From a virus, in the IMG/VR virus record IMGVR_UViG_3300021963_000027, positions 96,001 to 160,000 of that record: a stretch of 64,000 nt of DNA. The stretch is one strand, 5' to 3'. The stretch's first letter is position 1. Every line of letters starts with the position of its first letter. Below the pieces are notes generated by a model. The model did no database searches, had not been told where the DNA came from, and saw only the letters and a program-made list of their open reading frames with translations. A program made the translations under genes and the position numbers. Shown one piece after another: positions 945 to 54,514 of this stretch.

Positions 945-1715
945 TTATATGTCAAATATAATTTTTCCTTCTGATAAAGATTTAACAGAAATTGGTGTTT
1001 TACCTCTTTCAATAAAAAGATCTCTCATATTTATGAATTTTTGAAATTCTTCATAATCTGGTTTGATTTCAAAAATACCACCACAATTGAGAGATTTCAA
1101 TTGTTGCTCTGCAATAGCGGGAAGTTTTGATTCATCACCTATACAAGATAAATGATAATTTATAGCTCCAAAATTATAAACAAAATGTATATTTTCTTCA
1201 TCTTTGATCGCTATTTTTTTATCATTCGATATTTTACCATAAAAAACAGAATCGCCTCCCGAATTTTTTGAAAAATGTTGATAACCTTTAATATCAAAAT
1301 ACAAATCTGGTGTATAAGCTATCGCGTTCGGAGCATTCACGCCTTCTTCAAATTTTCCACCATACACAATATATGATCTGATATTTCTATACATTTGTAT
1401 ATGAGGATTTTCTTGAAATTTCCTAACGTGATATGATATTTGTTCAGGAAAAAATATATCATCGTCATCCAATGGCATGATCAAATCATAATCTTTACCC
1501 ATGACTGCACCGATATTTTTTTTAACATCTAATATCAATTTCTTATTGATGTTTAGGATGAATACCCTCTCATGATCAAATTTGATATTAACATTTGGAT
1601 CATCATTTATTATCACCAAATCTGAATTTTCATGTGTTTGTGATAAAAATGATGCTACCATTCTTCCCAAAAAAGGAAGTCTGCCATAAGTTGGAGTGAC
1701 TACTAATACTTTCAT
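945..1715 (-). CDS. GT2-family glycosyltransferase
   Basis: VVTPTYGR, IINDD, PLDDDD (GT-A fold motifs). Confidence 0.85.
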   Translation of the reverse strand: MKVLVVTPTYGRLPFLGRMVASFLSQTHENSDLVIINDDPNVNIKFDHERVFILNINKKLILDVKKNIGAVMGKDYDLIMPLDDDDIFFPEQISYHVRKFQENPHIQMYRNIRSYIVYGGKFEEGVNAPNAIAYTPDLYFDIKGYQHFSKNSGGDSVFYGKISNDKKIAIKDEENIHFVYNFGAINYHLSCIGDESKLPAIAEQQLKSLNCGGIFEIKPDYEEFQKFINMRDLFIERGKTPISVKSLSEGKIIFDI

Positions 1716-1972
1716 AAATTTTTTCTTTTAGATATATATTTGATATTTTTTCTTTTCAATTTGGGAATTACATTTTCAAAGAATCGAAATGTTTCTTCGT
1801 CGGTATCGAATATCTGTGAGTATCTATTTACTGTCTCGTTAGCATATTTCAACAGATCTTTATCATAGAAACTTAAGTAACGAGTGACCATGTATGGTGA
1901 AAATTCTTCCAACAATTCATTGGTCATCTCACTTTTCTTATCGAAAAGAATATGATTTATGGTGTTAAACAT
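1712..1972 (-). CDS. Clamp-loader small subunit (gp62-like)
   Basis: FSPYMVTRYLSFY...ANETVN...FFENVIPKLKRKNIKYI resembles the gp62 pattern. Confidence 0.6.
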   Translation of the reverse strand: MFNTINHILFDKKSEMTNELLEEFSPYMVTRYLSFYDKDLLKYANETVNRYSQIFDTDEETFRFFENVIPKLKRKNIKYISKRKNL

Positions 1973-2736
1973 AAGCGATTATTGATGATGTTTAGATACT
2001 CCTCACTGATCTCACTACCTAAAAAGTTTCTATTATTTTTAATAGCCATTTTAGCAGTAGTCCCACTTCCCATAAATGGATCGTATACCAAATCGCCTTC
2101 ATTTGACCAGCTTAAAATATGATCTTCTGCTAATTTTTCAGGAAAGATTGCTGGATGTTTGTATGCAATTTTATCATCAGAACCATAACCACCTCCTTGG
2201 GTATACTTCCAAATATTACGTCGAATACCAAATTCAGGAGCGATCTTACTTTCATATTTCTCACCCATAGTCCCATCTGCTTTTCTACGCTGGCGAGTCT
2301 TACCCCAACGCTCTCTCCATTTATTTGGTCTGTCGCAAATAGGATTGAATGTTTTGACTTTATCTTTAGATAAAACAAACATATATTCAAATGCAGGGTA
2401 ATATCTATTTTTCACTGGCGAGACTCCGCTCTTTTCATAAATGATGACATCATGTAATTTGAAACCAATTTCTTTGAAGTAAAGAGCTTGTCGAAAACTC
2501 GTTCCAGATTTATCACCATCTTTAGTCTGATCACCAACTACCCAAACAACAACTCCACCTTTTTTAGTGACTTTAAAAAGTCCTTTGGCTACATTTTCAA
2601 AATCAAATGAATAACCATTATAAGTTCTCAAATCATCATATGGAGGACTGGTAACAGTTAAATCGATAGATTCTTCTGGCATCCTATTCATAGTATCCAG
2701 ACAATTTTCATTATATATTTTATTAATTTCAAACAT
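1957..2736 (-). CDS. DNA amino-methyltransferase, beta class (N4-C/N6-A)
   Basis: TSPPY motif IV precedes DPFMGSGTT motif I; HPAIFP; likely start MFEINK at 2736. Confidence 0.92.
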   Translation of the reverse strand: MFEINKIYNENCLDTMNRMPEESIDLTVTSPPYDDLRTYNGYSFDFENVAKGLFKVTKKGGVVVWVVGDQTKDGDKSGTSFRQALYFKEIGFKLHDVIIYEKSGVSPVKNRYYPAFEYMFVLSKDKVKTFNPICDRPNKWRERWGKTRQRRKADGTMGEKYESKIAPEFGIRRNIWKYTQGGGYGSDDKIAYKHPAIFPEKLAEDHILSWSNEGDLVYDPFMGSGTTAKMAIKNNRNFLGSEISEEYLNIINNRLCLTP

Positions 2737-3496
2737 CAACTTTAAACATTTTATCGTGGTAAATATCAATCGCTTCTCTACCATTCGGGAACCACTTGGA
2801 AGGGAAATAAGATATCTTATTTCCAATCAAAGCTGCCCACCAAGAAAAAGTAGAGTTGCTCCCCACTACGATATCACACTTCGACATATATGCAAGCTCT
2901 TTAATATCAGATTCTGATTTCATTATAATAAATTCTTTACCTTTAAATTCTTCTAAAACAATTTCAGGTGAATCTGTGAATACAATAATTTTATTCCCCT
3001 TCACATCTTCAGGTGTGAAAGTATCGAATAATTTATTAAAGTATTCAGTTTTACATACATAATGTATAGGAGCATGAACGATATAATCACCTCTTCTTAT
3101 ATGAAATGCAACGTTCAGATTGTCTCCATATCTGGGAAGACTATCAACTTCTGGTAAGTTCAATAAAGAAATAAATTCATCTTTATATTCTTCAAAGTAT
3201 TTCAAAGATTGGAAATATCCGCTCAATGATACAGACCCCTCATGGAACGGTAATTCATCATAATTAAATCTTTTTTCACGGATACCAATCACATCTCTAG
3301 TGAGACGATTACCATATTCAAAATTCTTGAAGATCGTATCTTTATACACCAAAGGATTAGTTCCTTGACCAGCAAACCAATTATAAGGGTTGATGATCAA
3401 TTTCTTACCATGTTTCTTAGCATAAGCATAACCAGCAGCTATTTGAAATAACTGATTACCCACGCCACCAATAACATTTACATAACAATTAGACAT
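2729..3496 (-). CDS. Alpha-1,2-fucosyltransferase (GT11)
   Basis: GGVGNQLFQ, GYFQS, HIRRGDY, NSTFSWWAA; start MSNCY at 3496. Confidence 0.92.
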   Translation of the reverse strand: MSNCYVNVIGGVGNQLFQIAAGYAYAKKHGKKLIINPYNWFAGQGTNPLVYKDTIFKNFEYGNRLTRDVIGIREKRFNYDELPFHEGSVSLSGYFQSLKYFEEYKDEFISLLNLPEVDSLPRYGDNLNVAFHIRRGDYIVHAPIHYVCKTEYFNKLFDTFTPEDVKGNKIIVFTDSPEIVLEEFKGKEFIIMKSESDIKELAYMSKCDIVVGSNSTFSWWAALIGNKISYFPSKWFPNGREAIDIYHDKMFKVDV

Positions 3497-4172
3497 ATTT
3501 AAAATCGTAATAATGATTTCTATTTCTTTCAACATCGATATCATCTACGTGATGAGAATATCCTATATGTTTAACATATCCATCCATTAATGTCACAAAT
3601 TTATGATTAAATTTGTTTTTTAAAAAGTGTCCTATTTTAGTTTCACCGCCAATTTTATAATAATTACCTAATTTATCATAATCTGATTTTCTAATCAAAG
3701 AAGGATTGAATGTGAACCCCGAATAAATACCTTCCCACATAGGGAGTAGTTCTTTAAATTCTACACCATCATATTCTTCAATTTCATTTAATGTGGGGTG
3801 ATTATGATCATTTCGATCTCTAATCCAACATTGGAAAATATTTGAATCGCTTTCCAATAACTTTAAACTTTTATTTAAATATCCAGATTTGAAAAATAAC
3901 CAATCATCTTCACAATGGAAGATGTATTCAGTATCAACATGTGAATACATTTTATCAATACTTTTTATCTGACCAATTCTTTCGTCATTTGTTATCAATT
4001 CTACAAATTGATATTTTTCTCTAATGTTTGAATGGCATTGACTATCAGTAGAATCATCAATTATAATGAATTTTTCGATATCGTAATCACATGTCTGTAA
4101 AAAAGATGATAAAGTTTGATCTAATAAATCAAATCTCCCGCAAGATGTCATACAAAATGTTATTTTTTTCAT
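3489..4172 (-). CDS. GT2-like glycosyltransferase
   Basis: TSCGRFDLL, IIDDS, HCEDDW. Confidence 0.8.
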   Translation of the reverse strand: MKKITFCMTSCGRFDLLDQTLSSFLQTCDYDIEKFIIIDDSTDSQCHSNIREKYQFVELITNDERIGQIKSIDKMYSHVDTEYIFHCEDDWLFFKSGYLNKSLKLLESDSNIFQCWIRDRNDHNHPTLNEIEEYDGVEFKELLPMWEGIYSGFTFNPSLIRKSDYDKLGNYYKIGGETKIGHFLKNKFNHKFVTLMDGYVKHIGYSHHVDDIDVERNRNHYYDFKYV

Positions 4173-4178
4173 TTTTTT

Positions 4179-4772
4179 TTATTTTTTTCTTAGAATCAAT
4201 CTAATAGATTTGTAAACATTTGACCATCCTTCGTGAGTTGGGTTAATATCTTCGGACATTTTAATCACATCAAAATATTTTTTAAATTTATTAAGCAATT
4301 TGACATCATCTATTACAAGATGATCATCAGAAGACACTGTTCTCAAATCATAATAAATCCAGAATTCACCATTATCATTTAATGAATTAAAAATTTTATC
4401 AACAAAATTGTAATCAGGATCATTGAAATGATCTATCACATTCAAACAAATAATAAAATCGAATTTATCATCGATATTTGAATATAAAATATTATCACTC
4501 AATATTTTATATTTATTCAAAAATTCATATCGTTGAATTTTTGATAATTTGTTTAAAAGTGGATCTAGTAATACCAATCTTCCAGAAAGATCAATATCAT
4601 TGTATTCACTGATTGGACATCCACCACACCCAATTTCTAAAATATTCCCCGATGATATTTTTTCAAATGGGAAAAATTCTTTATAAAATTTTTCATGGTG
4701 AAAGGGCATTTTATGACCATTAATCCAATAATTTAATTCATGATTTTGTAAATATTCGTCACTGTAATTCAT
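4179..4772 (-). CDS. Class I SAM-dependent methyltransferase
   Basis: ILEIGCGG, FDFIICLNVIDH. Confidence 0.8.
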   Translation of the reverse strand: MNYSDEYLQNHELNYWINGHKMPFHHEKFYKEFFPFEKISSGNILEIGCGGCPISEYNDIDLSGRLVLLDPLLNKLSKIQRYEFLNKYKILSDNILYSNIDDKFDFIICLNVIDHFNDPDYNFVDKIFNSLNDNGEFWIYYDLRTVSSDDHLVIDDVKLLNKFKKYFDVIKMSEDINPTHEGWSNVYKSIRLILRKK

Positions 4773-5556
4773 ATTTTTCGTTTTGTTCTTTTAATCTCGT
4801 GTCTATGATATCTCCAACTTCAAAAGCATTGAAATATCGCCAATTTCTAGCATCATCTGGATGCCAGTTATTGACATCACCTCTAGGCATTTTAACCTTT
4901 TGCCAAAATTCTTTAGATTGTGTCGGGTAATGATTGATAATCATATCATAATCATTTTCAGCATTTGTCAAGTTTATATTAGAAGAACTAGAAACTTTAT
5001 GAATTTCTAAATTTTTATTATTAAACTTTTTAGTGTTAAGTATATATTTCAAACTTGCAGCGTTTTGCTCAACCCATTCACCGTTTGGTAACGGGGCATA
5101 TATAGTTTGATTTTCATCCATTCTCTTAACACATGAAGAAACGATAGATTTTGGATGATCAACGTTGCCATTTGAATTAAAATTAAACCAATTATTATAC
5201 ACAACTTCATAATTATAATATCGATTTAATGTGTCACTTAATAATAGATTATTCGGGGAATATACAAATTCATCTAAATCGTTGATCATAAACCATTCCG
5301 ATTCACCGATCACTGGTGTTAAAAATTTATTATAAGCTATACTCTGTCTGTTTGGAATTTTGGGAATATCATTTTTAAAAATAGTTATTTTTCCTTCTTC
5401 TTGGAATGGTTGTATGATTTCTTGATAATCATCGTCGCTATTATCATCTATCATGTAAATATGCTCAACCCCTCTATTGAGATAATGGGTGACCCATTCT
5501 CTCATATTAAGAGATTCATTTTTAAATATGCAACCTAAAGTTAATTTATATTTCAT
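4759..5556 (-). CDS. Glycosyltransferase (GT92/GT2_4-like)
   Basis: IFKNES..REWVTHY..GVEHIYMIDDNSDD, DLDEF, INHY. Confidence 0.8.
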   Translation of the reverse strand: MKYKLTLGCIFKNESLNMREWVTHYLNRGVEHIYMIDDNSDDDYQEIIQPFQEEGKITIFKNDIPKIPNRQSIAYNKFLTPVIGESEWFMINDLDEFVYSPNNLLLSDTLNRYYNYEVVYNNWFNFNSNGNVDHPKSIVSSCVKRMDENQTIYAPLPNGEWVEQNAASLKYILNTKKFNNKNLEIHKVSSSSNINLTNAENDYDMIINHYPTQSKEFWQKVKMPRGDVNNWHPDDARNWRYFNAFEVGDIIDTRLKEQNEKYELQ

Positions 5557-6259
5557 GACCTGTTCCCTCAAATCTTGGATATTCTGACATATTTTTATCT
5601 TTATGAATTATTTTTTTTTCGACTTCCAATGACCATTTTTCAGGATATGCATACCCCGAATCTAAGACTGTAATTTCATCTATAGGAATACTTGAAAAGT
5701 ATTTATTCAAATGGGATTCATCATGCCAAACGGCAACGATATTATTTCGTAAATCGATATCAATATTTTTATTTAGATTATCAATTAAATTGCAAATATT
5801 TAATGATTTACCACCCCATAAACAACCTTGTATGTATGGTCTATCGGTTTTAAAAGGTAGATAAGCAGTGGATTTCGAATTCTTCTCAGTAGTCCAAAAA
5901 GAATTATCAAAAATATTAGCAGGATGGGATACGCCAAAAATAGATGTATTTGGCATTTCATCTATTTTCGAATTTATTATTAAATCACAATCCATATAAA
6001 TGATATAATCATATTGTGACAATTTTTCAATTTGAGAATTGAAAAATTTAAATCTCTGTAAAGTTATAAATGGCCAAGATTGATGCCCTATTTTATTAAA
6101 AATTATGTTATTTTTTTCACTATGGAAAATATTTTCATCCGAAAATGTGAAGATATCCTTTTCGTAATTAGTTAAAAAATATTCATCAATCGATTTGATC
6201 AAATCACATAAAAGTGATTTGTAATTATTAGTCGCTATTGTTAGTATTGCAATTTTCAT
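5546..6259 (-). CDS. GT6 family (ABO/alpha-1,3-Gal/GalNAc transferase-like)
   Basis: IATNNY, WPFITLQRF, DCD, AVWHDESHLNKYF hallmark; start MKIAI at 6259. Confidence 0.92.
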   Translation of the reverse strand: MKIAILTIATNNYKSLLCDLIKSIDEYFLTNYEKDIFTFSDENIFHSEKNNIIFNKIGHQSWPFITLQRFKFFNSQIEKLSQYDYIIYMDCDLIINSKIDEMPNTSIFGVSHPANIFDNSFWTTEKNSKSTAYLPFKTDRPYIQGCLWGGKSLNICNLIDNLNKNIDIDLRNNIVAVWHDESHLNKYFSSIPIDEITVLDSGYAYPEKWSLEVEKKIIHKDKNMSEYPRFEGTGHEI

Positions 6260-6260
6260 A

Positions 6261-7076
6261 TCAAATAATCCAACTTTTAGTATATTGTTCCAACTCCTCC
6301 CGCTTAGTATTACCACAAACAAAATCAGAATGTCTCCGATTATTATCGTAATACGGATGCTTTTCTCTTACAGTATTCTCGTGTGGTAAATGCCATGCGA
6401 TTGCATTTTTATCTTCAACTCTATCGATAAAACACCCCATTTTATTAAATCTAGCTAAAATCTCATCGTCTTCATAACCCCATCCTTTAAAATTTGGATT
6501 ATAACCATTGCAACGAATAAATGTTTCTTTGCTGAACATCACCATACCACCTTTGCTATGTGGATGCGCTACTAGGAAATTATCATCCTGATCATAAGGG
6601 ATCGGCTTCAATGATTGAGACTTTTCCAATAGATCAACCAAGGATTGATTTTCCGCAAATTTTTCAAACATTGGTTGCTTCAAATGGATAAACATTCCAT
6701 TATAAGGGTAAATGATTCTACCCTTACCGTACTTTTCGAATTTATATTTAGCTTCATGTAAAAATACTGGATCGACAATCACATCCGTATCACCAGCAAT
6801 CAGATAATCCACATCCAAAATTTTGGACATCTCATTGAATGCCTTGGTTCTCCAATAGACATCATGGTTTACCATGAACAGACCTTTACAGTCATATTGC
6901 TTACAAAGTCTCTTGAAGTCCTTATCCAATTCCTTGTCGTCATTTAGAATGGCGATCTGGAGATTTTCTGAGTTCTCTCGATAAAATTTCACAACCATTT
7001 CCAGATTGCGAAAGCGGTCATCCACATCCCTACGGAAATGGATCATCAAGCCAATGTTATTAAGGTCTGTTTTCAC
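6261..7076 (-). CDS. Glycosyltransferase with GT7C (galactosyltransferase-like) C-terminal motif
   Basis: AGDTD; GYNPNFKGWGYEDDE. Confidence 0.85.
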   Translation of the reverse strand: MKTDLNNIGLMIHFRRDVDDRFRNLEMVVKFYRENSENLQIAILNDDKELDKDFKRLCKQYDCKGLFMVNHDVYWRTKAFNEMSKILDVDYLIAGDTDVIVDPVFLHEAKYKFEKYGKGRIIYPYNGMFIHLKQPMFEKFAENQSLVDLLEKSQSLKPIPYDQDDNFLVAHPHSKGGMVMFSKETFIRCNGYNPNFKGWGYEDDEILARFNKMGCFIDRVEDKNAIAWHLPHENTVREKHPYYDNNRRHSDFVCGNTKREELEQYTKSWII

Positions 7077-7077
7077 T

Positions 7078-7899
7078 TCAATTATTTTTCTTATTTTTCA
7101 AAAAAGTCAATACTTCTTTTTCATCTGTATCAGAAACACCGTCTCTTCCAAATGGATAAATACCGAATTTTTCCTTGAAGTATTCCATGGAACTCCGAAT
7201 ATTACTCCCCCATTTCTGCATGGATTCTGGAGTCTTGATGGATGAATTTTCCTCTGAACACGCTTGCTCTTCAATGTAATTCGAAGAATTTGCCAGATCA
7301 GTCCACCACCAATAAGGAGTGGAATATCCTTTCAGGGCAAGCTCATAGCTATGGGAAACATGATCAAAAGCATTTCGGAATTGCTCATCAATCAGACCGA
7401 CATCTTCTAGACACTTGCGGGAATAGTAACAGAACGCTCCCACACAATGCTGGTTGAAAGCTAAGGAGAAATCTCCATAATCCACCACCAATCGGGGGGA
7501 TGGCTTGCCTTTGGAGATACCGTTCTTATTGGCTGGTCCGTGATAGCCGAACATCAGGTGTTGGATTCCGCTTTTCTTTGAAGCATTGATATATGCTCGA
7601 AAGATATTGGGGTCTTTGATGAGCATATCATCTTCAATTAGAAAGATGTGATCACATCCCTTATCTAAAAGATGTTGCAATGCTTGATTCTTTGAAATAG
7701 CAACGCCAGTATTGTCTGTATGCTGTATTAGATCCACAGTATTTGAATAAATTGTAGGAGTGACGGCATAAGGATTACCGTCATTCACTACAACATATTC
7801 ATCAATATGGTTAGAGCATAGCTCCAAAGATTTCCAACATTTCCAGAAAAAATCTTCTCTATCTTTGGTTATAACACCAACACCAATTTTCCCGCTCAT
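7078..7899 (-). CDS. GT2-family glycosyltransferase
   Basis: VVNDG, TGVAISKN, FLIEDD, VGLIDEQF. Confidence 0.82.
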   Translation of the reverse strand: MSGKIGVGVITKDREDFFWKCWKSLELCSNHIDEYVVVNDGNPYAVTPTIYSNTVDLIQHTDNTGVAISKNQALQHLLDKGCDHIFLIEDDMLIKDPNIFRAYINASKKSGIQHLMFGYHGPANKNGISKGKPSPRLVVDYGDFSLAFNQHCVGAFCYYSRKCLEDVGLIDEQFRNAFDHVSHSYELALKGYSTPYWWWTDLANSSNYIEEQACSEENSSIKTPESMQKWGSNIRSSMEYFKEKFGIYPFGRDGVSDTDEKEVLTFLKNKKNN

Positions 7900-7900
7900 A

Positions 7901-9460
7901 TCAAAAATTATTAGATACTAATTCTCGGATTTCACTCAATGTCCAGTCTTTAATAAGCTCTCCATTCTTGAAAACATTCACGAATGCGCAATTTTTCACA
8001 TCATCCCAAGTCGCTTGATCTTTCATAGTGAAACCATTTTCAGTTTCATACACAGCGATCAAACCTTTGGCAGATTTTTTAAGTCCATCATCAGTTTTAG
8101 GATCTTTGAAGATTTCAATACCTTTGCGTTCACCGTTCACTAGAACTTCACCATAAGTAGATTTGACTGCAAATCCGTGAGTATCTCTAGTGATAATAGC
8201 ATCAGGATTTATAGCACCTTGATAGGTAAAGCTGCCAATACCAAAGACAATGTTAGTCGATGCAAAGCCTTTATCAGCGAGACGTTGGCAGATTTGCTCT
8301 GCGCGCTCAAGAGTAATGCTATCACCATAGATTGCTCCAATGTGAGAGTCGAGCATCTTATAGCCAGTCGAAGAGACTGTGCCACCAAAGATCTCCCAGA
8401 GGCAAACAATCAGGCCCTTACGCTCAAGTTCCGATGGCAATGTAACGCCACCGCTATAACTACGAGCATGTTCAAGGGCCGTCCATTCTTCATCAGTATA
8501 GCCAGTAACAATCTTCACTGGATCACCACTGTCAGGACGAATGACAACCTTGCCATCACGAGCCATGATCAAATCTTTAAGCTGAGCACAAATGCCGCCA
8601 TCAGGATTGACTACGTTCCAGAAGTCCCAGGTATCAGAGACGATACTGACAATGCCATTTGGATAAAGTTCGGTGATGAGACGTTTAAAAGTTCCGACTT
8701 CATCTTCAAGTCCACCCATGCACATCACACTGTGTTCCGTAGCTGAGACGCTACCACCAACGAGTTCTTTATCAGAATTTGCGTTGTAATACTCTTCAAG
8801 GTAGTCAATGGCAGGAACAGTGTCAGTTCCAGTAAATGCCAGCAAGTGACCAGCACCACTCATAACAGCGGCATCGAATCCAAAGTGTCCACGGAAACTG
8901 AAGTCATGACCTTGCCATGGCACGAAATCAATCATTTCGGGACTGGTTTTTTTGCACCACTCATTGAGAATTTTACGATACATAACTGCCGTAGTAGAAC
9001 TTGTGCATGGACCCCAAAGATTGGAACTGATGATAGTTTCGATTGCATTCGTCAACCAGAAAAAATTATCGTTAGTATTCCACATGACAAGCATGGGAAC
9101 TCTCAAATTAACAGCAGAACCTTCTGGCAATGCCCAAATTTCCAATGGGAGATGTCCAAGAGCATGAAGATCACGGATATGTTGCTCGCCAATACCATTC
9201 GGTCCGAGATAATTTTTCAGACGACGATTGTAATCAGCAACTACTTCTTCAACATCTTTTTGGAAGAATTCTTCATTCCATTCCTTAATAAGATGTTCTT
9301 TGATAAACGCTTGAAGTCCGAAGAAAATAACTTTATCAAGTCCTTTCACGCGACTACCACGAGCGGTCATATTGCTATAAACAAGCAAGCTATTTTCTGG
9401 ATATTGACGACGATGATCACATTTGTATCCATCGAAGCTGAGATGCGGTTTCTTTTTCAT
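7901..9460 (-). CDS. nadV: Nicotinamide phosphoribosyltransferase-like (Nampt/NadV; candidate Namat)
   Basis: DGYK, HDFSFRG, ATEHSVM, SIVSDTWD, VVIRPDSGDP, IYGDSIT, KSAKG. Confidence 0.93.
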   Translation of the reverse strand: MKKKPHLSFDGYKCDHRRQYPENSLLVYSNMTARGSRVKGLDKVIFFGLQAFIKEHLIKEWNEEFFQKDVEEVVADYNRRLKNYLGPNGIGEQHIRDLHALGHLPLEIWALPEGSAVNLRVPMLVMWNTNDNFFWLTNAIETIISSNLWGPCTSSTTAVMYRKILNEWCKKTSPEMIDFVPWQGHDFSFRGHFGFDAAVMSGAGHLLAFTGTDTVPAIDYLEEYYNANSDKELVGGSVSATEHSVMCMGGLEDEVGTFKRLITELYPNGIVSIVSDTWDFWNVVNPDGGICAQLKDLIMARDGKVVIRPDSGDPVKIVTGYTDEEWTALEHARSYSGGVTLPSELERKGLIVCLWEIFGGTVSSTGYKMLDSHIGAIYGDSITLERAEQICQRLADKGFASTNIVFGIGSFTYQGAINPDAIITRDTHGFAVKSTYGEVLVNGERKGIEIFKDPKTDDGLKKSAKGLIAVYETENGFTMKDQATWDDVKNCAFVNVFKNGELIKDWTLSEIRELVSNNF

Positions 9461-9462
9461 AT

Positions 9463-9873
9463 TTATTTTGTATTTTTGTTTATTTTTTCTAAGAGTATTT
9501 CTAAAGTTTCTAGAGCTTGTCCTAAACCCGCTCTATCACAAAGTAAAAGATTATAGTAAATCTTACCATCGTTTCCAATTTTGTCTAGTAAATTTTTGTT
9601 AAGTCCTTCAATTTTAATAAGGTTGTCTTCAAAAAATTGTTCAATTTTTTCAAATCTTTCTTTCTCCGAAGCAGTGAAAACAATTAATTTGAAATTATTT
9701 TCATTACATCTTTTCAAGATATTGATAACTTCTGAGGTATCATAATCGTCTTTATAAGGGCAAACTGTGTCATCAAAGTCTACTGCAATAATTAAAGAGT
9801 TATGCTCTTTCCATTGTTGGAATAATCTCTCTGCACAATTTTCAGATTTCGTAAAAGGATGATTATATCTCAT
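9463..9873 (-). CDS. Small HAD-superfamily hydrolase
   Basis: IIAVDFDDTV (motif I), LIVFTA, LLCDRAG. Confidence 0.65.
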   Translation of the reverse strand: MRYNHPFTKSENCAERLFQQWKEHNSLIIAVDFDDTVCPYKDDYDTSEVINILKRCNENNFKLIVFTASEKERFEKIEQFFEDNLIKIEGLNKNLLDKIGNDGKIYYNLLLCDRAGLGQALETLEILLEKINKNTK

Positions 9874-10799
9874 CAGTATTTGATTTTATAAGTTGTCAAA
9901 TCAGCGAATTTTAAGATATCTGACCAATTTTGCTTACTATTGGTCGTGAAAACGAAGTCAAATTTACGTGAAACATTTTCAACCCCTTCTTGGCAATCAC
10001 TGTGCGTAGTGAACAATCCCAAAGAACCACATTTTTTCTCTCTCAATTTTTCAGCAAGACCTAAGAATGTCCCACCTTTACAATTGATATCATCGATTAT
10101 CAATGTCGGTGCGCCCTCAACAAGTCCTTCACCAACGTAAAATTCTTTCAAAGAACCATCTTTAACGTCTCGAATTTTTTCACATCGAACGAGATGATAA
10201 TGATGAGTTCTATCTTGATTGGATAGATATTCAATGATTTTCTGAACTCTTTTACCAGCACCAGCATCAGGACATACGATATTAACATCCTTACCATTCG
10301 ACATTTGCAAAACGCTTTGCAACATGAATTCACGTTCATCTAAAATATGAACATTGTTGATCAATGCTGGTGTGACATCACTATGCGGACACAGAATAGA
10401 TACCTTATCGAATCCACAAGAGTTGATCATATCTGCGAAGATTTTCAAAGTAAAGGCTTCTCCTGTATTGCAGATTCTATCTTGTCTTGCCGCTGGGAAA
10501 TAGGGTATAAACAATTCAATATTTTTAATTCCCATACGACGAACAGCATCATTGGCTATTACGATATCGATCAAATCGGACACCGAATTGATACGATGCG
10601 TGATCACCATATTACCATTATATAATGGTGATTCGATTTTAAAATTTGGTTCTCCTGCTGGAAAAAGTCCTTTGGAAAAATTAACTTTAAAAATTCCATT
10701 AAAATAATCCGCAAAAGGATCAAAATTTTGATCCAGATTGAGAACATAAAGCTCCTCACTTTCGTTTTTCCAAGTAATGTGATTTTGTTGTTTCGTCAT
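9873..10799 (-). CDS. prs: Ribose-phosphate pyrophosphokinase-like (Prs; candidate Adps)
   Basis: FPAGE, IPYFPAARQDR, VCPDAGA, IIDDINCKGGTF. Confidence 0.9.
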   Translation of the reverse strand: MTKQQNHITWKNESEELYVLNLDQNFDPFADYFNGIFKVNFSKGLFPAGEPNFKIESPLYNGNMVITHRINSVSDLIDIVIANDAVRRMGIKNIELFIPYFPAARQDRICNTGEAFTLKIFADMINSCGFDKVSILCPHSDVTPALINNVHILDEREFMLQSVLQMSNGKDVNIVCPDAGAGKRVQKIIEYLSNQDRTHHYHLVRCEKIRDVKDGSLKEFYVGEGLVEGAPTLIIDDINCKGGTFLGLAEKLREKKCGSLGLFTTHSDCQEGVENVSRKFDFVFTTNSKQNWSDILKFADLTTYKIKY

Positions 10800-47750: not shown

Positions 47751-48155
47751 TTATTCACGCTTTTTAGCGACAGACGTATCAATAGCATTACAAAATCTAT
47801 CAATTTCACTTCTAATTCTTTCAATTGATCCCAATTCACTTGTTAAATCACCGATAATAGTGTTATTACGTGATTGTGAAATAGACGATAATACATTATC
47901 TTTAAGATACGTATCAATTTTTTCAAAATTTGCTTTCCAGCTATCAACAGTGGAAATCATTTCTTGATTTTGAGAATCATCTCCCATAGTAGCCATAACA
48001 TTTGGATCTGCTTCTGTATCTACACCATATTCATCGAGAGTGATTCCATCATCCAATTGTCCAGCAGCAGCAGCTTCTTCAGCAGCAGGATCGAACTCCA
48101 GTTCAGGTGCTTCTTGTAGTAATTTGAGGAATTTAGCTTGAAATTTGTTTCGCAT
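47751..48155 (-). CDS. Hypothetical protein, putative head-packaged
   Basis: Start MRNKFQAKFLKLLQE at 48155 under a late motif. Confidence 0.7.
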   Translation of the reverse strand: MRNKFQAKFLKLLQEAPELEFDPAAEEAAAAGQLDDGITLDEYGVDTEADPNVMATMGDDSQNQEMISTVDSWKANFEKIDTYLKDNVLSSISQSRNNTIIGDLTSELGSIERIRSEIDRFCNAIDTSVAKKRE

Positions 48156-48159
48156 ATTA

Positions 48160-48513
48160 TTATTTAGTGTTAGGGGTTGGTGTTGCTGTATTGGCAGTTG
48201 GTGTTGCTGTATTGGCAGTTGGTGTTGCTGTATTAGCACTTGGTGTTCCTTTATTAGTGGAACTCGTCTCCACATAATTTTTAATCAAATTGTATATTTG
48301 TTGGGTATGATTTCCAGCATTACCACCAAAAATTTTAGATATATCTTTACCAAGATCATATGCAGCAGATTGAGCGAATTCGTGTATTTTATTAACATCT
48401 CGCATTCCTTGTTTAGAAAATCCTCCTACAATTTTATTAGCGAATCTACGAAGAAATCCTTCTTCTAAAATTTCTTCTAATTTTTTCTGATCTTCTATCG
48501 AATAACGTGCCAT
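48160..48513 (-). CDS. Hypothetical protein with C-terminal (TANTATP)n repeat
   Basis: Leader KKLEEILEEG; Thr-rich tail. Confidence 0.7.
   Translation of the reverse strand: MARYSIEDQKKLEEILEEGFLRRFANKIVGGFSKQGMRDVNKIHEFAQSAAYDLGKDISKIFGGNAGNHTQQIYNLIKNYVETSSTNKGTPSANTATPTANTATPTANTATPTPNTK
48161..48166 (-). promoter_or_regulatory. Late promoter core TAAATA
   Basis: N5 to ATG(48155). Confidence 0.6.
48176..48240. repeat. 21-nt tandem repeat, about 3 copies
   Basis: GTTGGTGTTGCTGTATTGGCA units encoding ANTATPT. Confidence 0.85.
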
Positions 48514-49457: not shown

Positions 49458-50203
49458 GTATTGAAAATCACGAAGCATTTAAGAATTGCGAAGGTAAAAT
49501 GATCTGCCAATTGATTGGTGGCTCAACTTTGTATGGTTTGAACACACCAGAGTCCGATATTGATTATCGTGGTCTATTCGTCGCTAAAAATAAGCGATAT
49601 TTAGCCAATTTGGATAATATTGAATCGATTGTCCAGACTGATGACATTGATTCCACTTATTATGAGATCACTCGATACTTAAAATTATTGAGAAAGAGTA
49701 ATACTCAGGTTTTGGAGATATTATTTGCTCCCAATACAGCATTCACCTACAAACATCCAATCTTTGACGAGATTGTCACCCATGCTTACGATCTAATCGA
49801 CACTAATACCCTTAAAAATTCATTAAAGGGTTATGTATTCAGTGAGATTCGATTGGCTACTGGACAAAGAAGCGGTCAGTTAGGTGGTAAAAGGAAAAAA
49901 GCAGTGGAAACCTACGGATTCAGCCCCAAAAACTTTGTTCAAATCCTTCGTTTGTGTAAAGTCGGTATTGAGTTCTTCACCACTGGTAAATACATGGTAA
50001 ACGTCAAGGAATTTGATGAGAAGTATTGGGAGAAATTGATGGATTTAAAAACTAGCCCACAATACTACACATGCGAGCAATTGGAGCGAATGGTGAACGA
50101 AGAATTTGGCAAGTTGGAAGGAATCATGGAGTCATCTAAGATCTCTTTCAAATTTGATCCAGACATTGCAGCAGATATTATTTTAAAAGCAAAACAAATA
50201 TGA
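49448..50203 (+). CDS. Pol-beta-superfamily nucleotidyltransferase (RlaP/nrdC.11-like)
   Basis: GSTLYGLNTPESDIDYRG; NTQVLEILF. Confidence 0.85.
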   Translation: MELSIENHEAFKNCEGKMICQLIGGSTLYGLNTPESDIDYRGLFVAKNKRYLANLDNIESIVQTDDIDSTYYEITRYLKLLRKSNTQVLEILFAPNTAFTYKHPIFDEIVTHAYDLIDTNTLKNSLKGYVFSEIRLATGQRSGQLGGKRKKAVETYGFSPKNFVQILRLCKVGIEFFTTGKYMVNVKEFDEKYWEKLMDLKTSPQYYTCEQLERMVNEEFGKLEGIMESSKISFKFDPDIAADIILKAKQI

Positions 50204-50700
50204 AATACGGAAAACAGATATTATTGGGAGTAGTGGCTTCAAGTGCCATTGCTTATGGGTTATCAGATAATTTGGAGTCATTCTCTAAAACATTTGTCTT
50301 GGCTGGATTAGGGTTCGGCTCAGTTTATTACTGGTCGCAAAACAGAAAGAACAATGATAAAAGAGTGGAAGAATTGGAAGAACTTTTGGGCAAGAAGAAA
50401 GTTGATGAGCGTGTCGAGACTCTGGAGAATATGCTTCAAGAATCCGATGTGGTAATCACTGAGCAAGAAGAAGTTATTAAAAATTATGAGGAACTATTGG
50501 ACGAAGCATCTGTCAAATTCCCTTGTAATTGTGGTAACAACATGTTTGATGGCATTTTCAAACCAATGGAAGAATTTGTGGTTGAATGTGACTATTGTAA
50601 AAACAAATATTCCGTCACACTTAAATTGGATACTATACTGATCACTGAACCAATCGAAGAACTTAACATTGATAAACTAATTAAAGAAAATACAAAATGA
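50200..50700 (+). CDS. Putative membrane protein with C-terminal Zn ribbon
   Basis: Two hydrophobic segments; CNCG...CDYC. Confidence 0.65.
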   Translation: MKYGKQILLGVVASSAIAYGLSDNLESFSKTFVLAGLGFGSVYYWSQNRKNNDKRVEELEELLGKKKVDERVETLENMLQESDVVITEQEEVIKNYEELLDEASVKFPCNCGNNMFDGIFKPMEEFVVECDYCKNKYSVTLKLDTILITEPIEELNIDKLIKENTK

Positions 50701-50927
50701 TAAAAATAGAGACTAAAAAAGGAAATGTTGAAATGACACTGACTGAATTTGCAAGATGGGCATGTTTAGCAGAAGCATTTATCTTCATTGAAAACAAAGC
50801 TGAAGAACTAAACATTAACCCTGTCAACATGATTAAGCCACTGGCAATTGAAAAATACATTGACGAGCGATATCATGCAATGCTTTCCGATGTTCGATAT
50901 GAGTATGATCTAGGAATTTTGGAGTAA
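50697..50927 (+). CDS. Small hypothetical protein
   Basis: 76-aa ORF. Confidence 0.6.
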   Translation: MIKIETKKGNVEMTLTEFARWACLAEAFIFIENKAEELNINPVNMIKPLAIEKYIDERYHAMLSDVRYEYDLGILE

Positions 50928-51749
50928 TCCTATAACTTCTTTCTCAATTTCCGATTGTTTATCTTCCGATAATACGTCTTTGAAATGTTCTTTCAATTCG
51001 TTTGTCGGAAGATTTAATTCGTGAAAACCTAACATGTAATTACGATATCTTTCTTCGTATTTGTTTGGATAAGTAACACCATTTGGTCTATTAAAACGAT
51101 GCAACCATCTTAAAAACGGCAAACATAATGTTCTTTTACCATTTTTTATGTATTTTTTATGGATATATCCTTCTTCTCCACCAAATCCACGAAATTCTTT
51201 GTTAAATCCTAACCAAGAATCTTTTCTACAAGAAAAAAGACCAAGACCCTGAGAGGGGATTTCAAAGGGGTCGTTATCTTTATCTGATCCTCTTTCATCT
51301 GTTTGCCAAGTGCCTAACATATGTCCTCTCCATGTGAAGTCGAAATGAGTTGAATAATTTTTCAAATCATCATAAATGATCGGTCCTTGTAGTAAATTAC
51401 CACCATCTAAACCACTGTCATAAAAATCTATCAGTCTTTTCAAAGATCCTTTTTCTAAAAAGACATGAGAATCGATTGATAACACATAAGGAGTATCTGC
51501 CAACTCGAATATTTTATTTCTAATACTGGTTGATTTATATTTTACGAAAGGAAGATATTGAAACGGTTCTTTCATCCAATTTGTCAAATCCCTTATCGCT
51601 TTACCATGATTTGAATCAGGATTATTATCAATAATTACAAATTCGATATCATCCAACACTTCCGAATGATACATTCGTATTGCTTGAATGGTGAAATATA
51701 CCCCATCATAATCATCATGTGTTGCCATTCCAATGGTCAATTTTCTCAT
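50910..51749 (-). CDS. GT-A glycosyltransferase resembling polypeptide HexNAc transferases (GT27/GT60-like)
   Basis: YVLSIDSH (DxH), GLGLFSCRK, GFGGEE, LPFLRWLHRF. Confidence 0.7.
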   Translation of the reverse strand: MRKLTIGMATHDDYDGVYFTIQAIRMYHSEVLDDIEFVIIDNNPDSNHGKAIRDLTNWMKEPFQYLPFVKYKSTSIRNKIFELADTPYVLSIDSHVFLEKGSLKRLIDFYDSGLDGGNLLQGPIIYDDLKNYSTHFDFTWRGHMLGTWQTDERGSDKDNDPFEIPSQGLGLFSCRKDSWLGFNKEFRGFGGEEGYIHKKYIKNGKRTLCLPFLRWLHRFNRPNGVTYPNKYEERYRNYMLGFHELNLPTNELKEHFKDVLSEDKQSEIEKEVIGLLQNS

Positions 51750-51760
51750 GTAAATAATTA

Positions 51761-52237
51761 TTAGAATCCTAATTTATTACAAGTATTATCTACACATTTT
51801 GGGATAAAAATCGTCGGAATTGTAGTCGTAGTAGTGGTTGTAGTTGTAGTAGTAGTTGTAGTAGTGTTTGTTATTTTAATATTTAAAGGATTTAAAGTAG
51901 TTGGTAGTGTCAACGAAACCGATAGTGGTGGTATGGAAATCGTGGTAAAACGTGGCACAATAGGTGGTAAATTTACTGTGACTTCTGGTTTCGGCACGCA
52001 ACATTTTTCAGTTGTTGTTTCAGGTGGAGTAGTTGTTGGTGGTGGAGTAGTTGTAGCGGTGGTGGTAGAAGTGGTGGTGGAAGTGGTGGTAGTAGTGGTT
52101 GTAGAAGTAGAAGGTGGTGGAGTAGTGCTAGATGTAGGTGGTGGAGTAGTGCTAGAGGTAGGTGGTGGAGTAGTATCCGTAGGTGGAGGAGTAGTATCCG
52201 TAGGTGGAGTAGTACTAGAGGTAGTGGTGGTGGACAT
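51761..52237 (-). CDS. Mucin-like Thr/Pro/Ser-rich protein
   Basis: TTPPP/SSTTPPP repeats, poly-Thr runs, CC and C..C motifs; co-oriented with neighbours. Confidence 0.75.
   Translation of the reverse strand: MSTTTTSSTTPPTDTTPPPTDTTPPPTSSTTPPPTSSTTPPPSTSTTTTTTTSTTTSTTTATTTPPPTTTPPETTTEKCCVPKPEVTVNLPPIVPRFTTISIPPLSVSLTLPTTLNPLNIKITNTTTTTTTTTTTTTTTIPTIFIPKCVDNTCNKLGF
52030..52232. repeat. Low-complexity (GTA/GTG/GGT)n repeats encoding the PTS domain
   Basis: GGTGGTGGAGTAGT units; a second poly-Thr tract at about 51820-51865. Confidence 0.85.
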
Positions 52238-52272
52238 AATAGAGGATAAATTTATGAAATTTACTTTTCAAA

Positions 52273-52743
52273 TTACATTAAAATATAATTTGAATCATCA
52301 GTTACTATGTAAAAAGTATTCATATCGCGACTACCCGATGAAGTTGAAAAAGTTGTTCTATTAGTGCTTACTAAATTTGTTATAGTGCTGCCAAATTTAG
52401 ATATTTGTGTGTTACTATCGATTCCCTTACCTCCAATAGCCTCCCAATCGCCAATATTAGCTCCAGTGCCACTCTTCAATCGATATAGTATTTTGGTGTC
52501 ACTATTATAAACAGTATCGCCGATTTCTGCTGGAGCGACACTGGTGATATTTGTCACTGTTCCTTTAAATAGATTACCAGCGAGAACGCCACCAGTCGTT
52601 ACACCATCGCCAATAAATAATCGTTTGGTATCTGTAGTAAAAGCAGGTTCTCCCGAATTGAAAATTATATTTCTACGTTCATTATCAGTTCCTTGGCGGA
52701 ATAAAATTTTTAATAGTGTGTTGTTAAAGATTTCTATACTCAT
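52273..52743 (-). CDS. Tail-fibre-type protein with Mtd_N/hyaluronidase-like N-terminal domain
   Basis: FRQGTDNER...GEPAFTTDTKRLFIGDG. Confidence 0.75.
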   Translation of the reverse strand: MSIEIFNNTLLKILFRQGTDNERRNIIFNSGEPAFTTDTKRLFIGDGVTTGGVLAGNLFKGTVTNITSVAPAEIGDTVYNSDTKILYRLKSGTGANIGDWEAIGGKGIDSNTQISKFGSTITNLVSTNRTTFSTSSGSRDMNTFYIVTDDSNYILM

Positions 52744-52745
52744 GA

Positions 52746-53837
52746 TTAATATGCGAAAATTGGAATTGCGAATCTACCGAATTGTTGACCTGTTTTTGAA
52801 CTGAAATCACCTTCATAAGCTAAAAACCCAGCAGATGATAGTGTTATTGTTACCGTGGTGACACCATTTGATGATATCGCCTCAAATCTAGTTAATTGAA
52901 GACCTGGTATAGCACCTGTGATAGTGTGTGCAGGTGTCCCATTAAAAATAGATGATAAGCTATTTGTCGCATTTAACGTAGAATTGCCTGTCAGTGTTGT
53001 GAAAACAGACCTCTGAACTGCTTTTGTGTCACTAATGTTCGTCCACGCACTTAATTTGGTAGCAGATGAACCATTCATTTGATATAGAACACCATCGAAA
53101 GTTGATACATCATTACCATTAGCACTTAGAGTTGTTAGAGAATTGTATGTGCTTACTGGTGGAAAAAATTGTGATTTACCAAAAGAAGAACTAATCGAAT
53201 TGTATAATGAAGTATAATTAGCAGTTAAAATACCATCGACAAATGAAAAATTCGTCGGATTGGTTCTCAAAGTAACTGTATTACCATTCCCACCGCTCAA
53301 ACCATTTCCAAATGATGTTGACAATAATTCTCTAGTAGTAATCGATGCAGCATTTAACGATAATTTACTAGCTGAAAGTCCGAAAAATGTTGGATTATAA
53401 TTGATTTGTAATTTATTATTATTAATAAACAAGCCACCACCAACTGTATTTGGGTTTATTTTAGATGCCGATAGACCACTCAATTTCAAATTGATTGTTG
53501 AAAAAGAGTCATACTCAAATTCTTGTGATACTTTGGTAGCGATCCTACCCCATTTTGTGATATCAGTATAAGGGTTCGCCGTTAATTGATACCAAATATT
53601 ATCAATAGATACGATATCACCTATTTCCGAATATGTATCGGATAAACTATAAAAATTAGTCAGAGGTATATGATTTTTTGTCGTTATTGATACTCCACCG
53701 CTCAATACACCGTTTCCGATGTATAAACGTTTGGTATCAGTTGTGTATCCAGGTTCCCCTTGATCCAAACGAACAGATTTTCTTTGTTCATTCGTACCTC
53801 TACGGATTTTTAATTTAGATATGACGATATCAGGCAT
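52746..53837 (-). CDS. Tail-fibre-type protein with Mtd_N-like N-terminal domain
   Basis: IRRGTNEQR...GEPGYTTDTKRLYIGNG. Confidence 0.75.
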   Translation of the reverse strand: MPDIVISKLKIRRGTNEQRKSVRLDQGEPGYTTDTKRLYIGNGVLSGGVSITTKNHIPLTNFYSLSDTYSEIGDIVSIDNIWYQLTANPYTDITKWGRIATKVSQEFEYDSFSTINLKLSGLSASKINPNTVGGGLFINNNKLQINYNPTFFGLSASKLSLNAASITTRELLSTSFGNGLSGGNGNTVTLRTNPTNFSFVDGILTANYTSLYNSISSSFGKSQFFPPVSTYNSLTTLSANGNDVSTFDGVLYQMNGSSATKLSAWTNISDTKAVQRSVFTTLTGNSTLNATNSLSSIFNGTPAHTITGAIPGLQLTRFEAISSNGVTTVTITLSSAGFLAYEGDFSSKTGQQFGRFAIPIFAY

Positions 53838-53839
53838 AA

Positions 53840-54514
53840 TTATGAAGTTCTTTTCCAGACATAAACACCGAATGATGGTGGTGTATTATCAATAGGGTTC
53901 CCACTACCAGTATTATCCAAAAATACCTGACCATCTAAATTTAGCGTTTTATTCGTACTGTCGTCTGTCGTATGACCAGCGTTCTCGTGAACCATGGAAC
54001 GTCTGGAATCCAATAAAGTTGGTTCACCGCTCATAAGAGTCTCTCCACTAGGTCCTCTAGTGCCAGTGACTCCAGTGTGGGTATGACTTGGTAACTGTCC
54101 TACAGTTAATGTGGTTACATATTCACCACTATTATCACCGCTTGTAATGTTTTTAAGATTTACTCCATCGTCACCCAAACCGACACCAGCCAAAAATCTA
54201 CCTTCTGCCACAGCTTGCCATTTGGTATTCGAAAATCTCGATTGTGGATTGACATCATCAGATGAGAGATAAATTGAATTCACAGGATAAAGGTAATCAA
54301 TCAAAGTGGAGTAATTACCGATGCTATAATTGTCAGATGATAAAGTTCCAGTGAAAGATGCACCATTGCCATCAGAACCCACTTTAAAAGAAGTTTTATT
54401 ACCCGAACCATCATAAACTTGGGGTAAACTGGCTCCATCAGTGGGGACATTTGAGGTGTGTAATATTCCTTTATAAGAATCTGCGATGAATTGGTCAGTG
54501 AGATCAGGTAGCAT
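53840..54514 (-). CDS. Baseplate/short-fibre protein with collar-like C-terminus
   Basis: YPVNSIYLS, W..VAEGRFLAGVG, LPSHTH, PPSFGVYVWKRT. Confidence 0.75.
   Translation of the reverse strand: MLPDLTDQFIADSYKGILHTSNVPTDGASLPQVYDGSGNKTSFKVGSDGNGASFTGTLSSDNYSIGNYSTLIDYLYPVNSIYLSSDDVNPQSRFSNTKWQAVAEGRFLAGVGLGDDGVNLKNITSGDNSGEYVTTLTVGQLPSHTHTGVTGTRGPSGETLMSGEPTLLDSRRSMVHENAGHTTDDSTNKTLNLDGQVFLDNTGSGNPIDNTPPSFGVYVWKRTS

Follow-up and report, generated by a model that had tools for sequence, protein, structure and literature searches.

The window analysed here, a stretch of 64,000 nucleotides, spans bases 96001-160000 of an IMG/VR virus record (184 kb, approximately 34 % G+C) and encodes T4-type replication and structural genes. 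The virus is an uncultured aquatic T4-like phage, whose DNA polymerase is only 31-33 % identical to its counterparts in Melnitz, Mosig, and the cyanomyoviruses. On one strand of the window, a gene for a mucin-like protein rich in proline, threonine, and serine (PTS), the presumed acceptor, is followed by a gene for a soluble glycosyltransferase (GT) with a GT-A fold and a catalytic domain like that of family GT27 (Table 1). An initial annotation, made from the sequence alone, had described a 158-residue Thr/Pro/Ser protein with a GT-A enzyme 11 nt further on, and this arrangement is borne out. It is probable that the 279-residue enzyme is a soluble polypeptide Thr/Ser O-glycosyltransferase that acts on the adjacent mucin-like protein.

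The pair had also been placed at the end of the tail and baseplate cluster, which agrees with the matches upstream on the same strand: Mtd_N in two genes (52273-52743 and 52746-53837), and Gp10_C and tail-fibre PHROGs in a third (53840-54514). The PTS stop codon (TAA, 51761-51763) is separated from the GT start codon (ATG, 51747-51749) by 11 nt in which a terminator scan found no terminator-like site, and it is therefore likely that the two genes are co-transcribed. Nothing informative came from promoter and terminator scans or from a search for the T4 late promoter (TATAAATA). The last 18 nt of the GT gene (50910-50927) overlap the 3′ end of a convergent plus-strand open reading frame (ORF; 50697-50927), and thus the PTS-GT pair closes the fibre operon. 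In loci for which the downstream flank was fetched, this convergent ORF is conserved beside the GT gene down to 59 % GT identity and the gene at 50200-50700 down to 64 %.

The PTS protein contains 65 Thr, 30 Pro, and 14 Ser among its 158 residues (41, 19, and 9 %; combined T+P+S fraction 0.69) and four Cys, two of them adjacent at positions 79-80 and the others at 148 and 153. In the 184-kb genome it is the only ORF that passes the Thr-rich window test. Its N-terminal region is encoded by tandem repeats with a period of 21 or 24 nt, the number and sequence of which vary among close relatives; some other relatives have a globular head before the tract. Between near-identical phages (L003-L013; proteins of 138-215 residues) the repeat region changes length in frame, and a DNA run of a related strain contains a 57-nt skip and many small indels in these repeats. 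This repeat-length variation is consistent with slippage.

The C-terminal module was aligned across 19 relatives (alignment A2). AlphaFold2 predicts it as an extended chain with zero secondary structure (predicted template-modelling score, pTM, 0.18), and as modelled it is more in keeping with a mucin-like stalk than with a globular domain. The 15-Thr run within it is encoded by mixed ACN codons, its length being retained despite synonymous change, and in more distant relatives this position is still occupied by a Thr-rich tract. The carboxy-terminal tail, C...C-N-x-L-x-F, was found on a single ORF of the 184-kb genome. At the DNA level, the pattern CNKLGF-stop gave 22 matches: seven true PTS genes, all seven with an adjacent GT gene, two long proteins without one, and the rest chance matches. 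Two large acidic proteins (L126:11171-14245, minus strand; L141:238-1470, plus strand) end in ...LCDDEEDCNKLGF-stop, a PTS-type tail.

Over the last 83 codons of the PTS gene, dN/dS is 0.10-0.28 (dS up to 0.99; seven relatives), which is purifying selection; the ORF is therefore a real gene, and these values rule out a non-coding repeat artefact. The reading frame is intact in every related locus, where it encodes 134-676 residues. The repeats also produce a mirror artefact, a poly-Val/Gly ORF on the opposite strand (51834-52364). When the C-terminal module was searched against 5.8 billion proteins there was no match at E ≤ 0.001, as expected for a short, low-complexity query.

For the GT gene, dN/dS is 0.04-0.09. 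The sole Pfam match of the enzyme is Glycos_transf_2 (PF00535; 35.7 bits against a cut-off of 23.3, residues 6-172), which cannot discriminate GT2 from GT27 because 100 % of the chordate polypeptide N-acetylgalactosaminyltransferase (ppGalNAc-T) T8 cluster carries PF00535. PHROGs and NCBIfam hold a family for neither the GT nor the PTS gene. The four motifs named in the initial annotation are all present, DSH at residue 93, GLFS at 170, GFGGEE at 188, and PFLRWLHRF at 211. Invariance was scored over 43 phage and bacterial GT homologues (alignment A3; a further alignment, A1, holds 25 sequences), and D41 is invariant in addition to the motif residues listed in Table 1. The motifs stand in the same order as D224, H226, W331-GGEN, and H359, which we take to be the equivalent residues of GalNAc-T2, and the 27-residue spacing from the GGE motif to the His presumably also agrees with that enzyme; with this assumed numbering, both serve as leads only. 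The N-terminus leads directly into the first beta strand and the catalytic-domain alignment covers model residues 1-279, with no match to the ricin-type lectin domain (PF00652) and no type II membrane anchor in the protein.

The AlphaFold model, built from a 25-sequence alignment, has a mean local confidence score (pLDDT) of 93.1 and a pTM of 0.91. Foldseek against the Protein Data Bank (PDB) returned GT27 ppGalNAc-Ts at all of the listed ranks 1-47, with E down to 1.8e-14 and template-modelling (TM) scores by query of 0.64-0.76. An independent and exhaustive VIA-align search of 48,161 chains placed mouse GalNAc-T1 best (Z 22.5; 257 residues, 3.0 Å) and Toxoplasma GalNAc-T3 second (Z 22.1), followed by the chondroitin polymerase K4CP (18.3), RmlT (17.3), B4GALNT1 (17.1), TarS, TarP, and SpsA (approximately 16), and SunS (12.2-12.7). 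Thus, where the annotation had set GT27 against polysaccharide-making GT2 enzymes as a structural comparison, GT27 ranks first by both methods (Z 22.5 and 22.1 against 18.3 for K4CP). Identity in the GT27 structural alignments is 12-18 %. A GT-LanC fusion cluster is among the neighbours in the ESM Atlas.

Recurrence of the pair in related phages had been put forward as a check, and a PTS-type gene is found beside the GT gene in related phages and also in phages without synteny, while bacteria have a different form of the arrangement. Metagenomes contain 2,782 close relatives of the enzyme, many on contigs of 130-200 kb. Within the phage's own lineage, in every viral locus with at least 59 % GT identity for which the upstream flank was fetched, a Thr/Pro/Ser-tract ORF ends 10-12 nt before the GT gene. 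The encoded proteins all bear the C-x(3-4)-C-N-x-L-x-F/Y terminus except that of L022, which lacks the first Cys, and this tail is retained even where unrelated globular heads or long repeat domains stand in place of the N-terminal half. The GT in these loci is conserved at 59-98 % identity, against 29-50 % for its neighbours at the same distances.

Five further phage loci (L029, L145, L146, L147, and L148), some on contigs of 234-269 kb, have no flanking genes in common with the window. All five have a large Cys-rich poly-Thr or Thr-Pro protein (702-1037 residues, 33-65 Cys) directly upstream of the GT gene, and here the GT homologue makes up the N-terminal domain of a larger protein (345-679 residues). 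A tree of 106 GT domains splits phage, 43 %-identity, and bacterial clades, with weak deep support (0.5-0.87); when midpoint-rooted, the 43 %-identity viral clade lies on a long branch.

An exhaustive search gave 1,746 representative GT clusters. Bacterial homologues with 45-57 % identity carry a PqqD-type RRE (the recognition element of RiPPs, peptides made on ribosomes and modified after translation) or an HprK-related-kinase-like domain, then the GT, then Glyco_transf_25, and some of these fusions add methyltransferase, TPR, or sulfotransferase domains. The bacterial set comprised 81 loci (L036-L116), 80 of them from named species or metagenome-assembled genomes (MAGs; Bradyrhizobium, Yoonia, Amylibacter, Desulforhopalus, sponge symbionts, and others) and one other. 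In 44 of the 81, one to five small ORFs encoding a leader and a Thr/Pro-rich tail occur near the GT gene; in the examples examined they are mostly just upstream on the same strand. The leader has the form RR...LP..W-x-[KR]-P-V-V...VPAHA and is Tat-like (twin-arginine translocation), with a TIGR01409 match in one, and the tails are Thr/Pro/Ala-rich, mostly without conserved Cys. PqqD-type RREs bind a [Y/W]xxPx[L/V/I/F/A] leader motif in the precursors of lasso peptides and of linear polyphosphorylated peptides (Popov et al., 2026; PMC13381572), and the W-x-x-P-x-V of these leaders fits that motif. Fusions of an RRE to PF00535 have been noted only recently and are still uncharacterized (PMC12710340). 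Judged from the gene arrangements, a leader-guided glycopeptide cassette appears to be widespread in bacteria and is apparently undescribed in the literature searched. One GT copy with 73 % identity (L037; JAYVIK010000200.1) comes from a short contig of 3.6 kb that had been assigned to a Flavobacterium MAG; this contig is probably a piece of phage DNA, and as a hint at the host it is weak at best.

Taking together the own-lineage pairing, the non-syntenic phages, the bacterial cassettes, and the lone Thr-rich ORF of this genome, a Thr-tract polypeptide acceptor is the most economical reading for this GT clade.

Table 1. Features of the PTS-GT locus, related loci, and the distant glycan-enzyme cluster. 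Positions are those of the window unless a locus handle is given.
Feature	Position	Strand	Description
Mucin-like PTS gene, presumed acceptor	51761..52237	-	158-residue ORF; no signal peptide, no transmembrane or hydrophobic segment
Variable N-terminal Thr/Pro/Ser repeats	52013..52237	-	Residues 1-75, almost entirely T/P/S; TTPPP, TSS, and poly-T units
Conserved C-terminal module	51764..52012	-	Residues 76-158; CC, Pro-rich stretch, NPLN, Thr run, C-x(3-4)-C-N-x-L-x-F/Y terminus
15-Thr codon run	51821..51865	-	Residues 125-139; kept in close relatives
Carboxy-terminal tail CVDNTCNKLGF	51764..51796	-	Second Cys and Leu invariant, first Cys nearly so (A2)
Spacer, PTS stop to GT start	51750..51760	-	11 nt, no terminator-like site; 10-12 nt in all related loci
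Soluble GT-A glycosyltransferase, GT27-like catalytic domain	50910..51749	-	279 residues; PF00535, AlphaFold2 model, structure matches
D93-S-H95, predicted DxH metal/UDP motif	51465..51473	-	D93 and H95 invariant
G188-F-G-G-E-E193, Gal/GalNAc-T-motif-like	51171..51188	-	G188, F189, G190, E192, and E193 invariant
P211-FLRWL-H217-RFN-R221, candidate third metal-ligand His and acceptor-loop start	51087..51119	-	P211, W215, H217, R218, and F219 invariant
Upstream tail-fibre block	52273..54514	-	Two Mtd_N-headed proteins and a Gp10_C-type fibre protein
Non-syntenic phage loci	L145:1275-5845, L146:1281-6028, L147:1382-5041, L148:814-5635, L029:3862-7794		
Example bacterial cassettes	L038:4535-6885, L075:4600-6855, L105:2207-4948		L043 and L046 have four tandem copies each
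GT2	945-1715	-	Glycan-enzyme cluster
DNA N6/N4 methylase	1957-2826	-	Glycan-enzyme cluster
GT11 fucosyltransferase-like gene	2729-3544	-	Glycan-enzyme cluster
GT2	3489-4172	-	Glycan-enzyme cluster
S-adenosylmethionine (SAM) methyltransferase	4179-4772	-	Glycan-enzyme cluster
GT92/GT2_4	4759-5571	-	Glycan-enzyme cluster
GT6	5546-6322	-	Glycan-enzyme cluster
Glyco_transf_7C beta4GalT-like gene	6261-7076	-	Glycan-enzyme cluster
Gene without assigned function	7078-7899	-	Glycan-enzyme cluster

A number of results weigh against the proposed activity. A single-sequence search of PDB sequences with the GT found nothing at E ≤ 1, and profiles of 25 or 43 sequences match only the N-terminal nucleotide-binding half of GT2 enzymes in the PDB (K4CP, 2.6e-6; TarP, 5e-6). 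The sole PDB sequence match over the C-terminal, acceptor half is GalNAc-T7, at a non-significant E of 0.8; no GT27 chain scored below this value with profiles A1 or A3, so that sequence similarity does not place the enzyme in GT27. In the ESM Atlas, clusters of uncharacterized bacterial GT2 plus Glyco_transf_7C proteins reach TM 0.82-0.83, against 0.82 for the chordate ppGalNAc-T8 cluster; since these score equally, GT27 is the nearest characterized relative and not necessarily the nearest. Wherever the upstream flank of a viral locus with at least 59 % GT identity was fetched, the fibre-gene block shows synteny, and because of these shared flanks the own-lineage loci amount to approximately one observation. 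No Thr-rich neighbour lies within 6 kb of the GT gene in the 43 %-identity viral clade (L030-L034). The phage GT has no PqqD match, and the PTS protein contains neither Trp nor Tyr and so lacks a [Y/W]xxP leader. Lastly, there is no GT homologue in the 11-14 kb fetched around the tail-bearing proteins of L126 and L141. Because the same tail ends these proteins without a nearby GT, its distribution suggests that the PTS-type tail may have a role of its own, for example in attachment or assembly, rather than being a recognition signal for the enzyme.

The enzyme is therefore described as a GT27-like member of the GT2/GT27 group of GT-A glycosyltransferases, and not as a member of GT27. Of the likeness to polypeptide N-acetylhexosamine (HexNAc) transferases claimed at the outset, the GT27-like fold stands; the sequence profiles reach GT2 only, the Gal/GalNAc-T motif profile (PF02709) has no match in the GT at E ≤ 0.1, and the GT60 model (PF11397) has none in the GT (E ≤ 0.1) or in the genome (E ≤ 1). 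GT60 Gnt1 of Dictyostelium and Toxoplasma, a polypeptide/hydroxyproline alpha-GlcNAc transferase that acts on Skp1, is a soluble cytoplasmic GT-A enzyme related to GT27 that glycosylates a protein side chain. The phage differs from this system in the unmatched PF11397 and in a genome without a PF13640 prolyl 4-hydroxylase, on the strength of which a hydroxyproline route was rejected. The claim that the phage O-glycosylates its own protein is supported in part, in its enzyme-acceptor pair and its GT27-like fold, and sequence places the enzyme in neither GT27 nor GT60.

The adjacent protein need not be the target, and the enzyme could instead glycosylate other virion proteins of the operon (the Mtd_N fibres, the Gp10_C fibre, the capsid, or the tail tube), with the PTS protein as a spacer, a fibre, or one of several acceptors. 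The GT gene does close a tail-fibre operon, the fibre proteins encoded upstream have a moderate Ser/Thr content (T+P+S 0.22-0.29), and where phage virion glycosylation is known, its targets are subunits of the capsid and tail tube (Freeman et al., 2023, Cell Host Microbe, as cited in PMC12619734 and PMC12801897). However, the constant partner in non-syntenic phages and in bacteria is a Thr-tract protein and not a fibre gene, and the 10-12-nt coupling joins the GT to the PTS gene; this alternative is unlikely. Similarly improbable is an ordinary GT2-type transferase with a non-protein acceptor (envelope polysaccharide or lipopolysaccharide, a lipid carrier, or a free glycan), perhaps working with the cluster at 945-7899, for which the PTS adjacency would be inherited synteny. 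In its favour, Pfam and the PDB sequence profiles put the enzyme in GT2, the phage has six or more further GT genes, synteny underlies the own-lineage pairing, and the 43 %-identity clade has no Thr-rich neighbour. Against it, the best structural matches are the peptide-acting GT27 enzymes, approximately 4 Z units above the polysaccharide synthases; the bacterial PqqD RRE fusions and leader-peptide neighbours argue for polypeptide acceptors, and the GT gene is 43 kb from the GT cluster.

Modification of the conserved Cys (S-glycosylation, as in glycocins), or of a single site in the C-terminal module in place of dense modification of the Thr tracts, is very unlikely: SunS, a GT2 GT-A glycocin transferase, is among the structural matches (Z 12.7), with only the fold in common, but far below GT27 in the ranking, and although four conserved Cys bracket the module and the Atlas neighbours include a GT-LanC fusion cluster, most partner peptides in bacteria lack conserved Cys, these peptides are rich in Thr, and the Thr runs are conserved in length. 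Most improbable of all is the glycosylation of phage DNA bases as an anti-restriction measure. The DNA glucosyltransferases known from T4 are of the GT-B type, the GT gene is the last of a late structural operon with no hydroxymethylase context beside it, and its bacterial homologues are fused to peptide-recognition domains; these facts outweigh the two DNA methylases in the phage and the DNA-modifying glycosyltransferases that citing literature gives as common in T4-like phages.

If, as preferred here, the enzyme is a Thr/Ser O-glycosyltransferase acting on the PTS protein, it would be made late, with the tail fibres, from the same transcript as its acceptor. It would be metal-dependent, holding a divalent metal by the candidate ligands D93, H95, and H217, and would move a sugar from a host nucleotide-sugar, probably UDP-hexose or UDP-HexNAc, to the Thr and Ser hydroxyls of the extended, co-translated PTS chain in the host cytoplasm. 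The product would be a densely O-glycosylated stalk, which the Cys-bracketed C-terminal module may attach or present, probably on the virion near the fibres; this placement is inferred from the position of the gene at the end of the fibre operon. In the bacterial relatives, the leader would dock through the fused RRE and the product would probably be exported by the Tat route, while the phage form has lost, or never had, the RRE and leader. Acceptor recognition in the phage may use the Thr/Pro tract itself, as in GT27, or the conserved C-terminal module.

Among characterized enzymes, the GT27 ppGalNAc-Ts (mouse GalNAc-T1, 8v9q; human GalNAc-T2, 2ffu and 4d0t; Toxoplasma GalNAc-T3, 8uhv) are the best structural match, over 257 of the 279 residues, and, like the phage GT, carry in this order a DxH motif, a GGE-type Gal/GalNAc-T-like motif, and, further downstream, a His; an association with Thr/Pro/Ser-rich acceptors is also common to both. 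In contrast to them, the phage enzyme lacks the ricin-type lectin domain, the membrane anchor and stem, and the secretory-pathway location; it is phage-encoded and would act, if at all, in the bacterial cytoplasm, and its identity to them is 12-18 % with no significant sequence-profile link. K4CP (2z86; GT2 plus Glyco_transf_7C) and the wall-teichoic-acid enzymes TarS and TarP have the same GT-A fold and PF00535-type nucleotide-binding half and are the best PDB profile matches. They differ in their lower structural scores (Z 15.8-18.3), in an Asp-x-Asp (DCD or DSD) opposite the D-x-H of the phage GT in the profile alignments, and in acceptors that are polysaccharides or teichoic acids; we know of no Thr-tract partner gene for enzymes of this type.

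Virion glycosylation encoded by mycobacteriophages exists (Freeman et al., 2023, as cited), and there too, according to the citing papers, phage GTs near structural genes O-glycosylate the phage's own proteins. The acceptors those papers give are the C-termini of capsid and tail-tube proteins, whereas here a dedicated mucin-like acceptor gene is predicted, coupled to the enzyme. The PqqD-RRE/HprK-like RiPP systems (linear polyphosphorylated peptides and paeninodin-type lasso peptides; PMC13381572) resemble the bacterial GT homologues, which are fused to PqqD RRE or HprK-like domains and stand beside small ORFs with W-x-x-P-x-V leaders. Unlike these, the phage enzyme consists of the catalytic domain and nothing more, and its partner carries no leader of this kind; the bacterial modification would be glycosylation of a Thr-rich tail, which is absent from PMC13381572. 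Full-text searches of the literature turned up no account of either a GT27-like enzyme in a phage or this PTS-GT gene pair.

If the proposed activity is correct, the two genes form a self-contained module, an acceptor and a minimal soluble enzyme of 279 residues, for dense Thr/Ser O-glycosylation in bacteria. This would extend phage virion glycosylation from mycobacteriophages to abundant aquatic T4-like phages, would provide a prokaryotic and viral counterpart of GT27 that bears on the origin of mucin-type glycosylation, and would connect to the widespread and apparently undescribed bacterial cassette. Glyco-engineering in Escherichia coli could make use of so small and soluble a polypeptide glycosyltransferase whose acceptor is defined, and glycan-coated appendages could alter phage adsorption, the stickiness of particles, and recognition by grazers or immune systems. 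A broader proposal is tentative and, on balance, doubtful: that a soluble GT27-like clade of prokaryotes and phages with its own Thr-tract acceptors represents ancestral or parallel mucin-type O-glycosylation, which would then not be a eukaryotic invention, and that the phage builds a glycan brush on a virion appendage governing adhesion, host range, or evasion. That the variable GT11, GT6, and GT7C-type transferases elaborate the glycans to fucosylated structures of a blood-group-like kind is further speculation, which would lower the odds of the glycan-brush proposal.

At least 12 metagenome studies, of estuary, lake, pond, and sea, contain near-identical DNA, and there was no match in 50,697 cultured-phage records, either by tblastn with the GT or by blastn with 7.5 kb of the region. 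One metatranscriptomic contig of 217 nt covers 50882-51098 at approximately 98 % identity, and from a separate RNA run come two contigs that match the Mtd_N gene upstream at approximately 93 %; DNA carry-over is possible in both cases. Depth over the poly-Thr run was rejected as a signal of expression, being due to low-complexity cross-matching.

The glycan-enzyme cluster on the minus strand (Table 1) contains families that, with the GT27-like enzyme, make blood-group-type mucin glycans in animals. GT6 is present in none of five large related genomes and GT11 in four of the five; the cluster is therefore variable, and co-conservation of a blood-group-like set of GTs is ruled out. Adjoining it on the same strand is a pair of NAD+ salvage genes (7901-10799), a NAMPT-type nicotinamide phosphoribosyltransferase (7901-9460) and a ribose-phosphate pyrophosphokinase-like gene (9873-10799). 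At 47751-48513, also on the minus strand, two ORFs with short peptide repeats and no Pfam family overlap by 116 nt; the ORF at 48160-48513 ends in TPTANTA repeats and that at 47751-48275 begins with QQHQLPI repeats.

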